From Escherichia phage Gluttony: a stretch of DNA of 44,513 nucleotides. A model generated the notes under the pieces. The model made no database searches. It worked only from the letters and a program-made list of their open reading frames with translations, and was not told where the DNA came from. The translations under genes and the position numbers were made by a program. Position 1 is the stretch's first letter. Each line of letters begins with the position of its first letter. Shown piece by piece: positions 9,938-32,124 of this stretch. The stretch lies in the sequence record NC_031113.1. One strand, 5' to 3'.

Positions 9938-10171
9938 TTATTTATTAAAAAGTTTTAAAATCAGGTCGAGATATTTGTGCAGCCACACCAGTGGCGGGCG
10001 GTGCACGTTGTTTTCCATCCAGTTCAAACAGGCTTCGTTATAGCCGTCGTCCCATAAGCGGGATGGGTGGCGAATCATCCAGGCCAGCGCCAGCAGACCG
10101 CCGCAGGTATGTACTACGAATCCCAGTGCCGCCAACGGCAGCACCATAATCATTGCCAGAATCTTATTCAT
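9938..10171 (-). CDS. Small membrane protein
   Basis: Two hydrophobic segments (ILAMIMVLPLAALGFVV, GGLLALAWMI). Confidence 0.4.
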   Translation of the reverse strand: MNKILAMIMVLPLAALGFVVHTCGGLLALAWMIRHPSRLWDDGYNEACLNWMENNVHRPPLVWLHKYLDLILKLFNK

Positions 10172-11594
10172 CGTTTAAATCCTCGTCGCTTGCTTCTTGC
10201 CATTCCGGGCGCGGGTCGTCAACTGGTGCCAGGACTGGTTTCGCAGGTGCACGCGTGATTTTATCTTGCAGCTTCGCCCACACTTTCGGTTTCTCATCCT
10301 TCAGCACCTTCTCGGCATCAGTAGGGCTGATTAATGATTCCTTGTACATCAGGTCGCGCTTGATCCGGGCCGTTGTGAATACAGCGATAACTTCGCTTTC
10401 ATCCTTCCACTTACGCGCACCTTCACGACCTGCTACCAGCTTCAGGCCCAGCGCTTCGCCGTCACCGGCTAACACTGCTTTGAATACGGCAGCCTCGATC
10501 GCTTTGATGTGCTGGCGCATGGTTTCCAGACCGTCGTAAGCCTTTTTCAATTCTTCCGTGGTCATTGCACCGGCTGGCGCTTCTTTCTCGCCACGCTTCG
10601 CACGTCGGGCCGCTTTCCGGGCTTCGCGGGCCATGTTCCGGTCGTGGTTTTTGCATTCTTCCTCGGTGGCAATGCTTACATCGTCGCCCAGGTCTTCGTC
10701 GGTTGCCGTTGGTGGCGTCATTGTGTCGATGGCGGCTTTAGCGCGGGCACTACATTGATCCGCAAATCGACACCACTGACACGCATCGGCGCTCGGACGG
10801 AAGTCTGCACGGGTGAGATTCTTCTTACCCTTAGCGAAGGCATCCAGGGCGGCTACTGCGCGTTTTGCTGCGTACTTGGCGAAGATTTCCAGTGCTTCCA
10901 CTGAAATATCCCACTCCGATGCGCCGCCGCAATACGGCTGGAAGATGACCAGGCGAACGGTGGTAATGTCGTACATCTTTTGCAGCTTGCGCAGCAGACC
11001 GAGCGCATACAGCATAAGCTGTTTGTTCTCTTTCGCCTCGACCTTATGGCGTCCGGTCTTCAGGTCGCCAACAATCAGCATGTACGTGCCGTCGGTCTTC
11101 TTCATGACCATAACCATATCGGCAGTACCGAAGGTTTTAATCACCTCGCCGTCAATCTCGTAGCCTTTGTGCAGGACGCGTGTCAGATCCGCGCGCATCT
11201 CGAGCTGAACAAACTCCGCCACTTCGAGGAGCGGTCGCCAGTGGTCGATGTACGCGTCGCACTGTTTCACCATATCGTCGTTGACCAGTACGCCGCCTTT
11301 CGGTGCTTTCGGGTGTGCCTTTACTGGCCCCTTTCCTTCGTTCTCGACGTAACACCCTTTATACGTCTTTGCGGTTATCAGCTTTTCACCGGCGATAATG
11401 CGGTTTAGCACGACTTCAGATACGGTGTGCATACTCGTACCGTTAATCGCGGCTTGCCCGGATTCGTTTGGGATATCTTTTTCTACCACCAGAGCGGCAG
11501 GGCAACCCATCCATTTTTTAGCACCGGACGGCCCGAGTAATGAGTGTTCGGTATTGCTACCGGATTGCGTCTTACGTTTTGGTTTAATCGCCAT
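10164..11594 (-). CDS. PD-(D/E)XK (RecB/Cas4-like) exonuclease with Cys cluster and C-terminal extension
   Basis: GTADMVMV, IVGDLKTG, QLMLYA motifs; CQWCRFADQC cluster. Confidence 0.65.
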   Translation of the reverse strand: MAIKPKRKTQSGSNTEHSLLGPSGAKKWMGCPAALVVEKDIPNESGQAAINGTSMHTVSEVVLNRIIAGEKLITAKTYKGCYVENEGKGPVKAHPKAPKGGVLVNDDMVKQCDAYIDHWRPLLEVAEFVQLEMRADLTRVLHKGYEIDGEVIKTFGTADMVMVMKKTDGTYMLIVGDLKTGRHKVEAKENKQLMLYALGLLRKLQKMYDITTVRLVIFQPYCGGASEWDISVEALEIFAKYAAKRAVAALDAFAKGKKNLTRADFRPSADACQWCRFADQCSARAKAAIDTMTPPTATDEDLGDDVSIATEEECKNHDRNMAREARKAARRAKRGEKEAPAGAMTTEELKKAYDGLETMRQHIKAIEAAVFKAVLAGDGEALGLKLVAGREGARKWKDESEVIAVFTTARIKRDLMYKESLISPTDAEKVLKDEKPKVWAKLQDKITRAPAKPVLAPVDDPRPEWQEASDEDLNDE

Positions 11595-11773
11595 TATTCC
11601 ACCCTTGTAAACTGGACAATTACATATTTCACATTAGCCAGGCCCGCTTTTTCGACTCGGCGCTTAACTTCATTTTGCGCGTCCACAAAGCAATTGCTTG
11701 CGTTGGTGTTTTCAACAATAAAAGAAGTGTGATCGTTTAATTCGTGGCAAGTTGCCATGACGAAGAATTTCAT
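11594..11773 (-). CDS. Small hypothetical protein, 59 aa
   Basis: ORF with GGGAGA RBS; start overlaps upstream stop (TAATG). Confidence 0.35.
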   Translation of the reverse strand: MKFFVMATCHELNDHTSFIVENTNASNCFVDAQNEVKRRVEKAGLANVKYVIVQFTRVE

Positions 11774-12024
11774 TATTTTGTCTCCCAGCGGTCGATTGTT
11801 TTTGCTTCGGATGCAACTGCGAAGCGAACATATTCCAGATTTGAATCCGCCCAAATATAAAAGTCGGGATTAATAAAGGTGGTGCGCTTAATTTGCGCGG
11901 GGGTGTTGCGGCGTTTGTCTATTACGGCAACGCGTGACTGAAAGCTGCCGATGCGTTCGAATAGCCAATAGTACGGGCGCTGGTCGCGGGAATCCACCGC
12001 CTCGATTAGCGTGAATCGTGCCAT
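11773..12024 (-). CDS. Hypothetical protein, 83 aa
   Basis: ORF track. Confidence 0.4.
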   Translation of the reverse strand: MARFTLIEAVDSRDQRPYYWLFERIGSFQSRVAVIDKRRNTPAQIKRTTFINPDFYIWADSNLEYVRFAVASEAKTIDRWETK

Positions 12025-12035
12025 TGTCTCGTCCT

Positions 12036-12065
12036 CTAAAAATAGGCCCGCAGATTAGCGGGCCG
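12036..12065 (-). terminator. Rho-independent terminator after the first leftward early gene
   Basis: GGCCCGC/GCGGGCC stem followed by TATTTTT on the minus strand. Confidence 0.55.
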
Positions 12066-12072
12066 GATAATA

Positions 12073-12579
12073 TTAATCTTCCAGTTCGAAATAAGTTTCG
12101 ACGATTTCTTTTAGCTCTTTGTGGAAGTCTTCGACGTCGTCATCTTCCAGCTTAGCGATTGATTTGATTTCGAACGCGTCCAGCAGATCATCAAATTCGT
12201 CGTTCGCGTCGTCGTCATCACCGCCCGCGATAATCGCGGCATACTGTTTGATCTCGTCGCGCATCTCCGCCAGCGGATCGGCATCTTTCTTGCCTTTGCC
12301 CTTCGCCGGTGCTTTTTTAGACTTAGCCGGTTTTGCGTCTTCGGCGTCTTCGTCGTCATCTTCGACTACTTCTTTTTTAGCCTTACCTTTCGCCGGGGCT
12401 TTTTTAGATTTAGCCGGTTTTTCGTCTTCGTCGTCATCTTCGACAACTTCTTTTTTGGCCTTAGACGGCTTCTTGTCTTCCTGCTTACCAACGGCAGCGC
12501 CAACGGTTTCATAATGCTTAGCGATGACTTCCAGTGCTACTACGCCGCGAGTGATCAGGTTTACGATTTGCTCAAACAT
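12073..12579 (-). CDS. Highly charged tandem-repeat protein, first gene of the leftward early operon
   Basis: Start at MFEQIV with GGAG RBS; two copies of KKEVVEDDDEDEKPAKSKKAPAKGK; polyacidic C-terminus. Confidence 0.6.
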   Translation of the reverse strand: MFEQIVNLITRGVVALEVIAKHYETVGAAVGKQEDKKPSKAKKEVVEDDDEDEKPAKSKKAPAKGKAKKEVVEDDDEDAEDAKPAKSKKAPAKGKGKKDADPLAEMRDEIKQYAAIIAGGDDDDANDEFDDLLDAFEIKSIAKLEDDDVEDFHKELKEIVETYFELED

Positions 12580-12775
12580 GGTATATCTCCGATTGGTTAA
12601 GTTTAGGTGTCGGCAGTTAACTTCGTCGGTGGCCTTAACATATTGCCAGGTTACGCGTTCTCCCGTTCGGGTAGTGGACCTGGTTATATAATCACGGTTG
12701 GGAATCCTGACACTTCGATCCGGCCCCTGCGTTGCCCCTCTCCAGTTTGCGTCCTGCATCCTGTCGACGGAGTGA

Positions 12776-12805
12776 ATGATAGATTGGTTGCAGGATGGGT
12801 GTCAA
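12776..12805 (-). promoter_or_regulatory. Leftward early promoter (TTGACA-18-TATCAT)
   Basis: Consensus -35 read on the minus strand, about 190 nt upstream of the ATG at 12579. Confidence 0.5.
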
Positions 12806-12816
12806 CAACTAATTTC

Positions 12817-12851
12817 AAAAAAAAAGCGCCGAGGCAAAATGCGACGGCGCT
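12817..12851 (-). terminator. Orphan minus-strand intrinsic terminator in the divergent control region
   Basis: AGCGCCG/CGGCGCT stem followed by nine T on the minus strand. Confidence 0.45.
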
Positions 12852-12921
12852 AACCAATAAGAGACAATGAGACGGGAATTATTATTACACGCGTGCGCGC
12901 CCGTTTCAATATCCAAAGGAT

Positions 12922-12950
12922 TTGACACCATGCAGTTTTAGGTGTAGTTT
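12922..12950 (+). promoter_or_regulatory. Rightward early promoter (TTGACA-17-TAGTTT)
   Basis: Perfect -35 hexamer about 35 nt upstream of the ATG at 12982. Confidence 0.5.
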
Positions 12951-12981
12951 CGTTGGTCATTAACCAACAGGAGACTGAATT

Positions 12982-13311
12982 ATGAATATCAAAGAAGCAA
13001 TTGAAGTGTTATCTAATGCAATCCGCGGCGAAGCGGGTAAATCCTGGTATTACACAAATGCGGTGGATACTCTGTTATTTGAAGTGTCCAGATTATCGCG
13101 TGCTGAGAAGGAGCTTACCGCGAAGCTGGAATTGCTCAACGGCACGGCAGCAAGCAAGCTGCAAAAACACAATGAAGAAATGGAAGAATACAAAAAACAG
13201 GTTATCCGTCTACGTGAGGAAGGTAAATCCTGGGCGATGATTGCCGAGTTGACCGGAATTAATCAGAGCACAGTGCGCTCCTGGGTACGCAATAATAAAA
13301 CTTCTAAGTAA
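12982..13311 (+). CDS. HTH DNA-binding protein, putative transcriptional regulator
   Basis: C-terminal KSWAMIAELTGINQSTVRSWV helix-turn-helix; coiled-coil middle. Confidence 0.5.
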   Translation: MNIKEAIEVLSNAIRGEAGKSWYYTNAVDTLLFEVSRLSRAEKELTAKLELLNGTAASKLQKHNEEMEEYKKQVIRLREEGKSWAMIAELTGINQSTVRSWVRNNKTSK

Positions 13312-13321
13312 GGCCACGGCA

Positions 13322-15586
13322 ATGAGCTTAATTAAATTCGCTGTAACAAGACCCGCTAAAAAAGGCGAAAAAGCCAGGGCGGAAAACTTCCAGATGACGA
13401 CCGATGAATTTTTCGAATTTATCAAAGATGCGAAAGAGATATCGTCGGTGCATATCAACAAGACGGAAGATAAAGCCGAGTATGCGCGCCGCAAGCGTAA
13501 GGCCGATGGCATCGTAGCGTATACCAGTGACGGCTTACGCCGCAAGACCAGTGCGGTGGACCGCTCGATCCTGTTCTTCGATATTGACCGTACCGACACC
13601 CGCACCCTACGCCGCTGCCGTAAGGCTTTCATCGACGCGGGGCTGGAGCACGTATTTCACACCACAACCGGCGACCGCCACCCGCTGAAAGGCGGCACGC
13701 GTTGCGCTCGTTTCCTGGTGCTCACCGACAAGCCTGTACCGGCTGAAGACCTGGGCCGCGTCCAGTACGCACTATTACACCAACTGGGCCTGTCAGATGT
13801 GGACTTCGATGATTGTACGAAAGACACAAACCGCCTGATGTACCTGCCACACCAGCAGTCTGTTATTAAGTGCCACTACGGCAAGCGTGCCCGCGTCCGT
13901 CGTCTGCTTCGCCTGGCGGATAAGTTGGGCGTGGAGAAGGAGGAAGTACGCCGCGAGCTTACCCAGGGCGACGACGCAGTGGCAGACGGCATTCTGGACT
14001 GGTGCTTCCAGGCAGGATTCGAGGAGTTATCTTCCGGTCGCGGTTATGAAGTGCCGTGCCCGAACGAACATCTGCACAGCGGCGAAGGGTCGACGGCTAT
14101 CATGGTCAAGGATGGCGAGATCCGTTTCAAGTGTATGCACACCGGCAACGAGTGTTGCTCGGAACTGAACAGACACCAGCACCTGGCGCTACGTCTTATC
14201 GGGATCCCGGACCACCTGAACGTCGAGCCGCACAACATGTCACGTAAGCAAATCGCCGCCATCCTTCCGGGACTGGACGATGAGGAAGTGGAATCGTGCT
14301 ATGAACATATCGTTGATGCGGTCGGAGACGGCGACGAGTACGGCGTGTGTACTGATGCAGACCTGGACAACGAGCCGGTCGCACTGTTCAGTAAGCACGA
14401 CCCGATCATCGAAGGCCTGGTCAACTTCAAATCGACCTGGTATCTCGCCGGTGAGTCGAACATTGGCAAGTCGTTCTACGTGCTGGGCCAGATGGCGTCA
14501 GTATCTGCCGGTATTCCGTTCGGCGGTGCGAAGGTCGTCCAGTCTCATTGCTTCTATTTCGATGCGGAAGGTGGTGAGGCCTCCAACCAGCGTAAAGAAG
14601 CACTGCAGATCAAATATGAGCACGACCTGGACAAGCTGCACATTATCGATCTGCAATCACGCGGCTGGGATATCACCAGCAAATCCGGCTTGCGTGAAGT
14701 TATCAGCTTCATCAACCGCACCGCTAACGGCGAGCCGGTTGGCCTGGTGGCGTTCGACTCACTCAACCAGACTGTTGCGCTGCGGTCCGCCGATGCAAAA
14801 CCGTTCGACGAGAATAACGCCAGCGATATGGGTGAAGTGGTCAAAGCGCTGAAGGCCATTGCGGAAAATACAGGCGGCAGTGCGGGCGTCATCCACCACC
14901 CGGCGAAGGGTGCAAACGGCAGCAGATCTCCCCGTGGGTCCGGCGCGCTGCATGGCGCTGTCGATTCTGCGTTCTTCCTGGAACAGCCGGACGACAACCA
15001 GCCAGGTCAACTCAACCTGTATCACGAAAAATCCCGTAACGGCATCAAGCAAGCGCCGCGCGGCTTCGTCCTGCTCAAGTGCAAGGTTAAGGTGGATCTC
15101 CGCAAGTCCGAGGCGTTCGAAGCCCACCAGTCCACCAGCACCGGGCCGGACTTCGGTGACGTCGTTGCCGGTTGGGACGTCAAGCCGATTGCCTCCACGC
15201 CACGCGACGAGACTCTTTACCTCGTACCGGTCGCCCTGGCACCGTTCGCCATTGAGCAGGCAAAGGCCGCTGGCAAGGCCGCAGTTAAGGAAGAGAACGC
15301 CGCAGGACCGCGCAACGAAAAAGAGAAAGTGCTTTATGCAGCGCTGGAAAAACTGATGGAAGATAACCCGGACCATACCGGATTCAGCAAATCGGCAATT
15401 GTCCGCCAGGCTGGGCTTGCGAAAGGTGGCACATCGACGAAGGCAATTGACGATATGGTCGAGCGCGGCGTGCTCGGTTTTTATACCGATCCGCACACCG
15501 GGGCCATCTATGGGTCGTCGAATATCGTCATCAAAACGAAGATACCCATCACGCTTTCGGCGACCGATGACGACTTAAAAGATTAA
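13322..15586 (+). CDS. Primase-polymerase (AEP-like) fused to a RecA/DnaB-like ATPase; replication initiator candidate
   Basis: FFDIDRTD acidic motif, Cys/His zinc cluster, Walker A GESNIGKS, Walker B FYFDAEGG. Confidence 0.7.
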   Translation: MSLIKFAVTRPAKKGEKARAENFQMTTDEFFEFIKDAKEISSVHINKTEDKAEYARRKRKADGIVAYTSDGLRRKTSAVDRSILFFDIDRTDTRTLRRCRKAFIDAGLEHVFHTTTGDRHPLKGGTRCARFLVLTDKPVPAEDLGRVQYALLHQLGLSDVDFDDCTKDTNRLMYLPHQQSVIKCHYGKRARVRRLLRLADKLGVEKEEVRRELTQGDDAVADGILDWCFQAGFEELSSGRGYEVPCPNEHLHSGEGSTAIMVKDGEIRFKCMHTGNECCSELNRHQHLALRLIGIPDHLNVEPHNMSRKQIAAILPGLDDEEVESCYEHIVDAVGDGDEYGVCTDADLDNEPVALFSKHDPIIEGLVNFKSTWYLAGESNIGKSFYVLGQMASVSAGIPFGGAKVVQSHCFYFDAEGGEASNQRKEALQIKYEHDLDKLHIIDLQSRGWDITSKSGLREVISFINRTANGEPVGLVAFDSLNQTVALRSADAKPFDENNASDMGEVVKALKAIAENTGGSAGVIHHPAKGANGSRSPRGSGALHGAVDSAFFLEQPDDNQPGQLNLYHEKSRNGIKQAPRGFVLLKCKVKVDLRKSEAFEAHQSTSTGPDFGDVVAGWDVKPIASTPRDETLYLVPVALAPFAIEQAKAAGKAAVKEENAAGPRNEKEKVLYAALEKLMEDNPDHTGFSKSAIVRQAGLAKGGTSTKAIDDMVERGVLGFYTDPHTGAIYGSSNIVIKTKIPITLSATDDDLKD

Positions 15587-15700
15587 AATTTGCGCGCATT
15601 GGTCGCCGATATGGGGATTCCCATATCGCTAGACGATTAAATTTTGCGCGCATTGGTTGCCATTTTGAGTGTTTTTATCTGGTCGTATTGGTTGCCGTGT
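15584..15700. repeat. Direct repeats TTAAA(A)TTTGCGCGCATTGGT(C/T)GCC x2 flanking the palindrome CGATATGGG-GATT-CCCATATCG
   Basis: Read directly downstream of the primase-helicase stop; a third ATTGGTTGCC copy near 15687. Confidence 0.6.
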
Positions 15701-15744
15701 AGTGTGAATATAGTGAATAGTTATGCAGTTTTATTGCATAAAGT

Positions 15745-15902
15745 AAGCGGGACAAAAAGCGGGACAAACAAGGGGCGGGACAAAGCGGGACAGCACCCCC
15801 GTCCCGCCACGGATGGCGCGGCTTCCAGAGGAGCGGGACAGCGGGACAGCACCCCAGTCTTTCAGACTAGACGGGGGTCAATGGCCCCCCTCGTCTGAGA
15901 CT
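15745..15902. repeat. GCGGGACA iteron-like array A with 3' hairpin module; putative origin or regulatory cassette
   Basis: At least six GCGGGACA copies at about 11-bp spacing, then CAGTCTTTCAGACTAGACGGGGG...CCCCCCTCGTCTGAGACTG; near-identical to 31965..32124. Confidence 0.6.
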
Positions 15903-16062
15903 GAATAAAATCCGGGGATTGCAAAATACACGGCAGCATGATGCTAAGTGCGGTCGTCGATGAACTAGGCAACCAATGCAGGTTGTATTATGCTGAGTGA
16001 AAATGCGGTTTGCAGTCACAGCAGATAGCGATCAACTTTTTCATGCGCGTGATTAATATTGG

Positions 16063-31116: not shown

Positions 31117-31493
31117 TGGAGAATACTACAATGGCTAAAGCACCACTCTTCACTCTTGACCCTAAGCCGACCTTTAAGCTGCCGATTGAGATCCCGCGCC
31201 CTGGTGAGAACGAACCCGGCAAGATGACGTTTACCGTCCGTCACCGCCCGATCGACGAATTTTCGCAGACCATGCAGGACACCGAACGCAAGCTGTCGGA
31301 ATATGACGACAATGACCCGGACGGCTTTAACGTTATGGTCGAGGCCATCATGCACGTCGCAGAAGGCTGGAATCTGCCAGACGAATTTAACGCGGAGAAC
31401 GTCCGCCGCCTGGTGGTCAACTATCCTCGCGCGTTCGGTGTGTTCCATACGTCGTACTATCTCGAACTGATGGGCTTGCGTGAAAAAAACTAA
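31116..31493 (+). CDS. Tail assembly chaperone (lambda gpG-like)
   Basis: 125 aa, acidic, position before the tape measure; ends just after a slippery heptamer. Confidence 0.75.
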   Translation: MENTTMAKAPLFTLDPKPTFKLPIEIPRPGENEPGKMTFTVRHRPIDEFSQTMQDTERKLSEYDDNDPDGFNVMVEAIMHVAEGWNLPDEFNAENVRRLVVNYPRAFGVFHTSYYLELMGLREKN

Positions 31494-31810
31494 TTGAGGC
31501 GGCGCGACGCTTTTATGGCCCGCCGCCACCCTCCGAAGATTTAGCCGCAAGTTTATGGGGTGCGTCCCCCGAAGATGTTTGTCCGCCTGTTGCGTTATGG
31601 CCTGACAACGCGAAGATAGTCGCAGTATTCACGGATTGTGCCACGCAATGGCGCACCGGATTTGGTGGCGCATACGGCATCGATTACGGCGTGCTGGAGT
31701 GGTTATTTAAGATGCACGGTATCGAAAACGAGCAGCGCGCGTTTAAAGATATCAAGCTAATGGAACGAATCGCGCTTGATGAAATGGCGCAGCAGAACCA
31801 CGCACAGTGA
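31116..31810 (+). CDS. Tail assembly chaperone frameshift product (gpGT-like) via programmed -1 frameshift at 31484..31490
   Basis: Slippery A_AAA_AAC in the 0 frame; the -1 frame is open for 106 codons from 31490 to the TGA at 31808..31810. Confidence 0.7.
31484..31490 (+). other. Programmed -1 ribosomal frameshift slippery heptamer A_AAA_AAC
   Basis: Codons gaA AAA AAC TAA; fits the X_XXY_YYZ pattern. Confidence 0.7.
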
Positions 31811-32124
31811 AGCGGGACAAAGCGGGATGTCCCGTTTTGTCCCGCCTCTGTAAAACTGCATATCTAATCACTCCCATTGCATAAACCAAAAGAGGGACAG
31901 GCGGGACGTCCCGTTTTGTCCCACCCCATAAATGTGCATATCTATTCGCATTTCGTGCATAAAACAAACGGGACAAAAAGCGGGACAGACCAGGGGCGGG
32001 ACAAAGCGGGACAGCACCCCGTCCCCGCCAGTGCTGCCGCTGGTTTCAGCCGATCGGGACAGCGGGACAGCACCCCAGTCTTTCAGACTAGACGGGGGTC
32101 TGGCACCCCCCTCGTCTGAGACTG
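31811..32124. repeat. GGGACA iteron-like array B with palindromic units and the same 3' hairpin module as array A
   Basis: About 14 GGGACA copies including palindromes GGGACAAAGCGGGA-TG-TCCCGTTTTGTCCC; 32055..32124 near-identical to 15833..15902. Confidence 0.65.

Follow-up and report, generated by a model that had tools for sequence, protein, structure and literature searches.

A putative small RNA gene ending in an intrinsic terminator between the divergent early promoters of Escherichia phage Gluttony and other Dhillonviruses

In phage lambda, the strong promoter pR' is followed at a short distance by the efficient terminator tR', and this pair produces an abundant short RNA, the 6S RNA, upstream of an operon. 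A second short lambda RNA, OOP, extends leftward from its own constitutive-type promoter, pO, to the intrinsic terminator tO. Its transcription opposes that of the neighbouring early rightward operon, and its unit immediately precedes the replication genes, next to a small regulator gene. OOP acts by antisense pairing (PMC12197685). Small RNAs ending in a terminator hairpin are also found in other temperate phages: in sar of P22 and c4 of P1/P7, an unpaired region pairs with the Shine-Dalgarno sequence or start of an early gene, limiting its translation (PMC12197685). In Tn916, the intrinsic terminator T1, located just upstream of a regulated promoter or operon, blocks transcription coming from outside (PMC11658703).

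Here, we analyzed a hairpin followed by a T-run whose surroundings recall several of these systems. The window is the whole 44,513-nucleotide sequence of Escherichia phage Gluttony (NC_031113.1). Over the 2 kb around the terminator, the sequence matches that of Escherichia phages Lust and Pride at 100% identity and that of many further members of the genus Dhillonvirus, which groups HK578-like lytic siphophages, at 92-96%. The site is contained in a divergent control region of 400 bp (12580..12981), the only one in the window. To the left of 12579, every long ORF and annotated gene is encoded by the minus strand; among the products are a PD-(D/E)XK nuclease, DNA polymerase I, a helicase and a methylase. 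From 12982 rightward, the genes are on the plus strand, in the order 109-aa helix-turn-helix protein, helicase-primase, then lysis, packaging and tail genes, the exceptions being two isolated minus-strand genes deep in the late region. Given this arrangement, no minus-strand gene feeds the terminator, in agreement with the earlier note on this DNA, which had seen no minus-strand gene to the right of the site; the two far late-region genes aside, no minus-strand protein gene is found there. ARAGORN detected no tRNA or tmRNA.

Our best reading of the locus, to which we assign a probability of about 0.55 from sequence comparison, is a small RNA gene of about 56 nt, whose terminator would also shield the leftward early promoter P1 and whose product would pair with early ribosome-binding regions. 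Such an RNA would share with OOP the short leftward transcript, the own promoter of constitutive type, the intrinsic terminator, the orientation against the adjacent early rightward operon, the position directly upstream of replication genes and beside a small regulator gene and, as a proposal, the antisense pairing. The two differ in several respects. OOP overlaps the 3' end of cII, to which it is perfectly complementary as a cis-antisense RNA, whereas the segment encoding the Dhillonvirus RNA (12817..12873) lies between P1 and the rightward early promoter P_R and overlaps no annotated or conserved plus-strand gene, unlike the cis-antisense arrangement of the oop and sar type. The pairing of the Dhillonvirus RNA would take place in trans, over 13-16 nt, and at ribosome-binding sites instead of a 3' end. 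No sequence similarity links the two RNAs, and Dhillonviruses are strictly lytic phages without a lysogeny decision to tune. With sar and c4, the predicted RNA has in common its small size and the terminator hairpin at its end; as for c4, its proposed targets are similar copies and not the overlapping strand. In contrast, sar is encoded in cis, on the strand opposite to its target, c4 arises by processing of the transcript that also carries its target, and both control an antirepressor in temperate phages, whereas the Dhillonvirus RNA would putatively target two divergent operons.

On the plus strand, positions 12817..12851 read A9-GCGCCGAGGCAAAATGCGACGGCGCT. On the minus strand, 12851..12825 read AGCGCCG-UCGCAUUUUGCCU-CGGCGCU followed by U9 ending at 12817, the first U doubling as the stem-closing base. 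The terminator hairpin (12825..12851, minus strand) is composed of a 7-bp stem, AGCGCCG/CGGCGCU, with six G-C pairs, a 2x2 internal loop and an inner 3-bp stem, GCA/UGC, and the U-tract (12817..12825, minus strand, nine T) adjoins it without spacer. For the folding energy, which had been suggested as a check, we obtained an RNA MFE of -16.7 kcal/mol for the hairpin, with a fold z-score of -2.65 in a 73-nt context and of -3.40 for the 57-nt predicted RNA. The U-tract is one of two runs of at least seven T on both strands of the 44.5-kb genome. To estimate the rarity of the combination, we used a custom genome scan compared with dinucleotide shuffles in place of a generic terminator scan. A GC-rich perfect 6-bp stem with at least seven T within 2 nt occurs a single time in the genome, at this site, while the expected number is on average 0.033 per dinucleotide-shuffled genome (at least one occurrence in 3.3% of 300 shuffles). 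The generic terminator scan, which considers loops of 3-8 nt only, did not report the site, because its apical region of 13 nt, including the inner 3-bp stem, exceeds the 8-nt loop limit. Since the plus-strand side is devoid of a T-run, the signal is unidirectional and concerns leftward transcription only. Structure and rarity thus agree with the earlier description of a GC stem and nine T residues as a minus-strand intrinsic terminator, the coordinates of which were exact, and the hairpin with its U9 is most likely a genuine Rho-independent terminator.

For comparison, we took the corresponding region of 14 IMG/VR contigs and of several GenBank phages, the hairpin not being a search criterion. 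Every Dhillonvirus examined carries a hairpin and 8-13 T at the equivalent place. In the Ioannina/LM40P1/L004 lineage the stem reads AUCCCCG...CGGGGAU, and in L016, a divergent metagenomic relative without counterpart in the phage database, it reads AUCCCCAG/CUGGGGAU with an inner stem UCA/UGA. In these Ioannina/L004 and L016 lineages, stem pairs 2, 4 and 7 and the first inner pair are changed on both sides; the compensatory changes, counted over three lineages, are G-C to U-A, G-C to C-G and G-C to A-U in the stem and G-C to U-A in the inner stem of L016. As the pairs are altered on both sides and the pairing is kept, it is the structure rather than the sequence that is conserved. The T-run of L016 adjoins the hairpin and lies 25 nt from the -35 element of P1, 14 nt more than here; since it stays at the hairpin, the T-run is part of the terminator and only secondarily, if at all, of P1. 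In the record of phage CS16 (LR999870), the site is labelled 'terminator'. The UCCCCG...CGGGGAU stem of two lineages resembles the E. coli type I-E CRISPR repeat, a likeness that was dropped because the stem of the window itself differs.

A promoter scan of 10000..16000 returned three sigma-70-like sites in all, two of which, P1 and P2, are on the minus strand of the control region. P1, the leftward early promoter (12776..12805, minus strand; TTGACA-18-TATCAT, 11/12 matches), has its -35 element 11 nt beyond the U-tract and carries the motif GCAACCAAT in its spacer; the site is therefore upstream of the leftward early promoter, as had been noted before. P2 is made of a -35 element TTGAAA (12904..12909, minus strand), a 17-nt spacer and an extended -10 element TGtAATAAT (12881..12889, minus strand), with 10/12 promoter matches plus the TG. 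At a distance suitable for an independent small RNA gene, the hairpin is thus preceded by a predicted promoter of its own, TTGAAA-17-TGtAATAAT (12909..12881). The rightward early promoter P_R (12922..12950, plus strand; TTGACA-17-TAGTTT) was read from the sequence and fails the -10 rule of the scan. P_R and P2 are back-to-back, with 12 bp between their -35 hexamers. The GenBank record of HK578 annotates promoters at the equivalents of P1, P2 and P_R and, among 18 distinct Dhillonvirus sequences, the hexamers of P2 are invariant or nearly so, the -10 hexamer being invariant. The term 'orphan', applied to the terminator in the earlier note, has to be given up, since antisense transcription has an identifiable source: P2, a strong predicted minus-strand promoter, would begin an RNA of about 56 nt ending in the T-run.

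On the other side of P1, we observed a second RNA element. The P1 transcript begins with a structured leader RNA of about 160 nt (12770..12606), which is missing from some Dhillonviruses and also present in Drexlerviridae (JK16, PHB17), Jilinvirus PT1, Sortsnevirus and Guernseyvirinae-like contigs; in those four groups it is always intergenic, in sense orientation and just after a -10-like hexamer. After covariance-model realignment, 18 of the 27 modelled pairs change on both sides, and the covariation score is 0.42 against 0.17 for shuffles (reached by 0/500) and at most 0.16 for slid controls. Its closing helix is often followed by ACC(A). A search of Rfam with this leader RNA gave no match even at E <= 1.

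The extent of the predicted small RNA (about 56 nt; 12817..12873, minus strand) is set by the geometry of P2, the onset of conservation and the terminator: its 5' end would be near G12873, as judged from promoter geometry and conservation onset, and its 3' end within the U-tract. The 5' body, 22 nt long (GUCUCAUUGUCUCUUAUUGGUU; 12852..12873, minus strand), is unpaired in the MFE structure. Among the 18 distinct Dhillonvirus sequences, 2/23 columns vary in the body, against 6/6 in the discriminator just upstream and 24-62% in the neighbouring non-hexamer segments overall (P_R spacer 48%, between the two -35 hexamers 62%, P1 spacer 28%). With a variable discriminator and a body that is near-invariant from the predicted +1, the conserved object starts where the RNA should. 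The module is present in 153 phage records, and tblastn with the helicase-primase retrieved 153 Dhillonvirus-level records. Phage Oekolampad of the BASEL collection has an identical module, with 100% identity over 12806..12915. L016 keeps the same layout, with a different 3' half of the body and a different stem.

Searches outside the genus gave negative results. Rfam 15 contained no family match in the window at the gathering level, and a permissive Rfam search of 12815..12900 gave best sub-threshold scores of 11-22 bits for thresholds of 42-72. No DNA similar to the RNA module was found in 5,426 E. coli genomes, so the RNA is neither a copy of a host sRNA nor prophage-borne. In the searchable literature, we found no transcript, promoter or sRNA data for any Dhillonvirus or HK578, the RNA-seq studies that mention Dhillonviruses holding host data or data of other phages, and no description of the P2-RNA-terminator unit. 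Its parts are already annotated piecemeal, the promoters in HK578 and the terminator in CS16. The U9 tail and a U-rich stretch before the hairpin are compatible with a candidate Hfq-dependent sRNA. That the site could mark the 3' end of a small RNA was one of the options left by the earlier note; it is supported here and made more precise by P2, which the note had not mentioned and which is located about 56 nt before the T-run ends. We consider it likely that the hairpin terminates a P2-driven transcript, and put the chances that the predicted RNA has a sequence-specific function at about even.

The same segment could alternatively belong to a small protein gene, either the minus-strand 36-codon ORF 12960..12850, the end of which the terminator had also been proposed to mark, or a plus-strand 24-codon ORF starting at ATG 12867, of which the transcript would be the cis-antisense partner. 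Both ORFs exist mechanically, some GenBank records call a hypothetical protein here, and the plus strand of the RNA gene resembles a ribosome-binding region followed by an ATG (AAGAGACAATG). However, the 36-codon ORF undergoes a mid-frame switch in one group of relatives, has an altered C-terminus in another and is interrupted by a stop codon in L009; L006, HK578 and CHD5UKE2 have lost or replaced its start, and the ORF is absent from L016. It has neither a Shine-Dalgarno sequence nor an upstream promoter, its ATG is within the rightward 5' leader, and it has no PHROG or Pfam match. As for the plus-strand ORF, its length is 19-26 aa and its middle is in two different frames among relatives, the gap between a Shine-Dalgarno-like GAGA and the ATG is just 2 nt, and no rightward promoter is found upstream. 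Both ORFs were rejected as credible genes, and we regard a small protein gene as very improbable. The transcribed 56 nt contain no ORF, and the longer ORFs that cross them on either strand are not conserved.

We looked for the unit in distant loci by alignment of the helicase-primase N-terminus (53 loci fetched). IMG/VR contained no relative with a helicase identity between 69% and 43%, which leaves a gap between Dhillonvirus and Guernseyvirinae. At 35-43% helicase identity (Guernseyvirinae, Eiauvirus and unclassified contigs), a minus-strand hairpin with a T-run was present in all the distinct loci (28/28). It precedes the helicase-primase gene by 112-133 nt, the distance being 192-247 nt in the Kagunavirus clade. 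Where the loci were read in detail, the site comes directly after the stop codon of the preceding gene, which encodes an XRE-type regulator in most; because the terminator abuts this stop codon, Guernseyvirinae and Eiauvirus are even closer to the OOP layout. A promoter-like site at most 150 nt upstream of the hairpin was observed in 15/28 loci, compared to 9% of shuffles, and the predicted leftward RNAs would measure 57-130 nt. The bodies of these RNAs are not conserved, and their complementarity to neighbouring mRNAs reached P<0.05 in 1/27 tests. As the architecture is kept and the bodies are not, the architecture is old and probably of sequence-independent value, candidates for which are a block on transcription that diverges from the promoter of the replication operon, or a coupling of promoters. 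In Dhillonvirus, the unit has in addition acquired a conserved body.

These observations bear on a reading of the terminator as a pure insulator. P2 would then be a divergent partner or by-product of the replication-operon promoter P_R, the RNA would have no sequence-specific role, and the terminator would only stop polymerases before they occlude P1 or make antisense RNA; the T-tract, together with AAATTA, may at the same time serve P1 as an UP-like element. The constancy of hairpin and T-run upstream of the distant helicase-primase genes (28/28 loci, 15 of them with a promoter-like site) and the neither conserved nor complementary bodies of the RNAs found there are in favor of it, and insulator terminators are documented, T1 of Tn916 being an example (PMC11658703). 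Like T1, the present site is an intrinsic terminator just upstream of a promoter. In Tn916, however, the incoming transcription originates from unpredictable host promoters, whereas a conserved, dedicated phage promoter is located about 56 nt away here, and the transcribed segment is itself conserved in Dhillonviruses. A pure insulator puts no constraint on the body, yet no other non-hexamer stretch of the region is as conserved, and this conservation starts at the predicted +1; in most lineages, the body is significantly complementary to the two flanking ribosome-binding regions; and the upkeep of a strong promoter is left unexplained. We hold this explanation to be possible, at clearly less than even odds. 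Insulation of P1 as such, which had been suggested for this terminator, is plausible and compatible with a small RNA: under either reading, the geometry is such that transcription from P2 would be kept from reaching P1 by this one hairpin.

The complementarity of the body concerns the first gene of each early operon. The candidate leftward mRNA target, UAACCAAUCGGAGA (12586..12599, minus strand), lies over the Shine-Dalgarno sequence of the first leftward gene (12579..12073); 13/14 positions pair with the RNA body, with a duplex energy of -18.0 kcal/mol and a shuffle P of 0.0005-0.004. The candidate rightward target, UAACCAACAGGAGAC (12961..12975, plus strand), lies over the Shine-Dalgarno sequence of gene 12982..13311, with 14/15 positions pairing, -18.7 kcal/mol and a shuffle P of 0.002-0.017. 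These P values are based on dinucleotide shuffles of the RNA, the observed values being reached in 0.05-2% of trials. When the 63 annotated genes of phage Pride were compared by their translation-initiation regions, the leftward site ranked 1st and the rightward site 2nd by ungapped score, and the same two sites ranked 2nd and 4th by duplex energy. A genome-wide scan of duplex energy placed the two sites roughly in the top 20 of about 14,800 windows, a scan that is not discriminating because long G-U-rich duplexes dominate it.

Among relatives, the rightward site of phage rolling presents a 16-nt match (-23.9 kcal/mol). In CHD5UKE2, which has a different first rightward gene, 10 nt of the start region (AGACAAUGAG) match another part of the RNA perfectly. 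In L016, where RNA and leftward site have both diverged, 9 contiguous pairs are left (P 0.005-0.014). Significance was reached in the window, in rolling, in CHD5UKE2 and, for the leftward site, in L016. The complementarity was no better than that of shuffled sequences in the Ioannina/LM40P1/L004 lineage (P about 0.44-0.47) and not significant for the rightward site of HK578 (P about 0.1). Furthermore, a CU-rich RNA pairs with any purine-rich Shine-Dalgarno region, which counts against specific pairing. An antisense mechanism is plausible from these matches, and the pairing of the RNA with both early ribosome-binding regions is put forward tentatively.

The matches can also be viewed as DNA sites. 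The body and the two matching ribosome-binding regions would then serve as operators (TAACCAAYNNGAGA, a sequence akin to GCAACCAAT) of a phage DNA-binding protein, for example the 109-aa helix-turn-helix product of 12982..13311, and the RNA-RNA complementarity would be a side effect of oppositely oriented sites; the terminator reading is compatible with such operators. Several observations point in this direction. ATTGGTT has 17 matches in the genome against 5.5 expected, a threefold enrichment, and GCAACCAAT clusters in intergenic regions, often paired and in both orientations, the P1 spacer holding one copy. Three long copies of the motif are found just downstream of the P2 and P_R starts and before the leftward Shine-Dalgarno sequence; read by their geometry, the 14-nt copies at about +5..+18 of P_R and about +10..+23 of P2 occupy typical operator positions. 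The product of the first rightward gene (12982..13311; 109 aa) has an HTH_23 / sigma-70 region 4-type domain. Eiauvirus, which is devoid of this RNA, has AACCAAC before the Shine-Dalgarno sequence of the homologous leftward gene. Given the genome-wide motif and the Eiauvirus copy without RNA, the shared AACCAA motif may be a protein-binding DNA site: ATTGGTT/AACCAAT looks like the operator of a phage regulator, and operator sites could account for part of the conservation. However, the invariant 5' part of the body, GUCUCAUUGUCU, is outside the motif and is also kept in L016, and neither this nor the 10-nt match of this 5' part to the alternative first-gene start region of CHD5UKE2 is explained by operators. 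In addition, the P_R of HK578 has no motif despite a homologous helix-turn-helix protein, and the three long copies start with TAACCAA and not with GCAACCAA. We judge operator sites an unlikely explanation.

A regulated attenuator of the lambda pR'-tR' type, in which an antiterminator would let P2 polymerases into the leftward operon, was also considered, together with a replication element of the lambda pO/oop type, in which P2 transcription would activate or prime an origin. For the attenuator, a short constitutive transcript with a strong terminator upstream of an operon is the layout of the lambda 6S RNA, and here too a strong promoter is followed by a nearby terminator upstream of an operon. 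The lambda operon, however, has no promoter of its own and needs Q antitermination, whereas in the present locus the consensus promoter P1 (11/12) is found immediately beyond the terminator, 11 nt after the U-tract. Because P1 directly follows the terminator, the leftward operon needs no read-through. We found no Q-like gene or binding site, and in the scan of the flanking genes none could be recognised as Q-like or N-like. For the replication element, the unit adjoins the helicase-primase operon in Dhillonvirus and in all the relatives, as oop adjoins gene O, and the pO promoter matters for lambda replication control according to a review (PMC12197685). The P2 spacer contains a 14-nt alternating pyrimidine-purine tract, which could respond to supercoiling. 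Overall, we consider an attenuator or a replication element improbable.

For the small RNA that we favor, the following sequence of events is proposed. Host RNA polymerase would start a very short leftward transcript at the sigma-70 promoter P2, and the hairpin with U9 would end it. P2, the unstructured body of 22 nt and the terminator would thus form an autonomous non-coding RNA gene of about 56 nt between the divergent early promoters. The terminator would also stop the P2 polymerases from entering P1, which would be insulated from P2 because the terminator ends 11 nt before the -35 element of P1. The CU-rich body (5'-GUCUCUUAUUGGUUA) may pair with UAACCAAYNGGAGA, which in both early operons overlaps the first gene's Shine-Dalgarno sequence, and this pairing would damp the translation of both first early genes. 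In its full form, namely that all the Dhillonviruses encode a constitutive RNA of about 56 nt pairing in trans with both early ribosome-binding sites, and that the Guernseyvirinae and Eiauvirus units are its older oop-like relative, the proposal is speculative and, in our estimate, has well under an even chance of being correct.

If true, one tiny RNA would determine how strongly the entire early programme is translated. For temperate phages, regulatory RNAs are amply described (oop, sar, c4, lambda PreS); for the virulent siphophages used as therapy candidates and in model collections, hardly any are known. The Dhillonviruses include several phages of the BASEL collection. Public records are inconsistent at this site, giving nothing, a hypothetical protein, a promoter or a terminator, and their annotation could be corrected. 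A conserved RNA of about 56 nt, bounded by a promoter and a terminator at the early switch, would indicate a way in which lytic phages might keep their two early operons in balance in the absence of a repressor. Leftward terminators that adjoin the replication operon in distant genera as well suggest a design principle shared across this large group of enterobacterial siphophages.

Downstream of the leftward early promoter P1, we observed a structured leader RNA of about 160 nt (12606..12770, minus strand), whose 5' end lies at approximately +1 of P1 and whose 3' end stops about 7 nt short of the UAACCAAU site. It contains a GNRA-type hairpin, a long variable helix and a closing helix, after which ACC(A) is often found. 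Its large invariant blocks read GGAGAGGRGCRACGCWGGGGCYKGAUCGWAGUGUCAGGAUUCCYAACCGUGA, CACU, AGAACGC and RAGGCYACCGACGAAG, in that order. Copies were found in further loci (L126, 573-737; L127, 575-738; L128, 588-749; L129, 588-751; and L130-L138), and a -10-like hexamer was present directly 5' of the RNA in every case. Both sides had changed in 18 of the 27 modelled pairs, and the covariation score was 0.42, compared to 0.17 in shuffles, none of which reached the observed value (0/500).

The leader RNA is common to Dhillonvirus, where it is optional, Drexlerviridae, Jilinvirus, Sortsnevirus and Guernseyvirinae-like contigs. Bacterial genomes essentially lack it: two matches were obtained, both located on contigs of metagenome-assembled genomes. 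No match was obtained in Rfam 15, even at E <= 1, and nothing was found when the region was scanned with ARAGORN.

The spacer of P1 itself holds one copy of the motif GCAACCAAT (ATTGGTT), and two copies in L016, a divergent metagenomic relative. We counted 17 matches to ATTGGTT in the window versus 5.5 expected, a number that was reached in none of 100 shuffles. The sites (for example 993/1008, 2666/2683, 9902/9918, 12789, 15658/15693, 15971, 16064/16095, 26215/26229 and 42330) are concentrated in intergenic regions, in both orientations, and are often paired at a spacing of 14-35 bp. The motif probably serves as an operator for a phage regulator or as a promoter element specific to the phage. 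As for P2, the minus-strand promoter of the predicted ~56-nt RNA, its spacer is filled by a perfectly alternating pyrimidine-purine tract, CGCGCACGCGTGTA (12887..12900), which could adopt the Z-DNA form or render P2 responsive to supercoiling. The substitutions found in this spacer in HK578, L009, LM40P1 and L016 are all transitions and keep the alternation, but since transitions are the commonest type of change anyway, this conservation is weak evidence.

The annotation of the first genes of the two divergent operons is inconsistent across public records. The 109-aa protein encoded rightward (12982..13311, plus strand) is recorded as 'DNA recombination nuclease inhibitor gamma', 'transposase', 'resolvase' or hypothetical, while Pfam detected only a HTH_23 / sigma-70 region 4-type domain; in HK578 and CHD5UKE2, the N-terminus of the protein is a different one. 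On the leftward side (12073..12579, minus strand), the first protein contains a repeat region, rich in lysine and acidic residues, that varies in length, and in the phage Ioannina record the leftward CDS runs on across P1 and the predicted ~56-nt RNA gene.

Leftward terminators were also analyzed in 28 distinct loci of distant relatives (Guernseyvirinae, Eiauvirus and others, within L088-L125). A leftward hairpin followed by a T-run was present just 5' of the helicase-primase gene in all of them (28/28), 112-247 nt upstream of its start (at about 2880 in L110, 2870 in L094 and 2756 in L111). In the loci read in detail, the gene before it, which in most cases encodes an XRE-type regulator, has its stop codon just ahead of the hairpin. 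Several of these terminators also have a plus-side T-run and are thus bidirectional. The palindromic -10 near the terminator of L094, GATTATAATC, suggests a promoter that is symmetric and bidirectional.

Within the window, the only run of at least seven T residues in the genome besides that at 12817..12825 is also on the minus strand (about 31483..31530), among the structural genes of the rightward block. It is preceded, at a distance of 6 nt, by the end of a strong hairpin (-18.8 kcal/mol), and together they may constitute a further leftward stop signal. Repeated CGGGACAG / GGGACA units on the plus strand, upstream of the tape-measure gene (31870..32070) and after the helicase-primase gene (15817..15852), came up as top matches in the duplex scan owing to G-U pairing.

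Directly 3' of the first leftward gene, a terminator-like hairpin, GGCCCGC-UAAUCU-GCGGGCC, is followed by UAUUUUU (12064..12045, minus strand); the CS16 record labels it a terminator. The nuclease and polymerase genes beyond it, if driven by P1, would need read-through, which bears on the question of the leader RNA made from P1. This RNA could possibly act as a promoter-proximal antiterminator, put- or canT-like; a stable tRNA-like RNA and a decoy are also possible roles. The leader RNA may be the most interesting object of the region.
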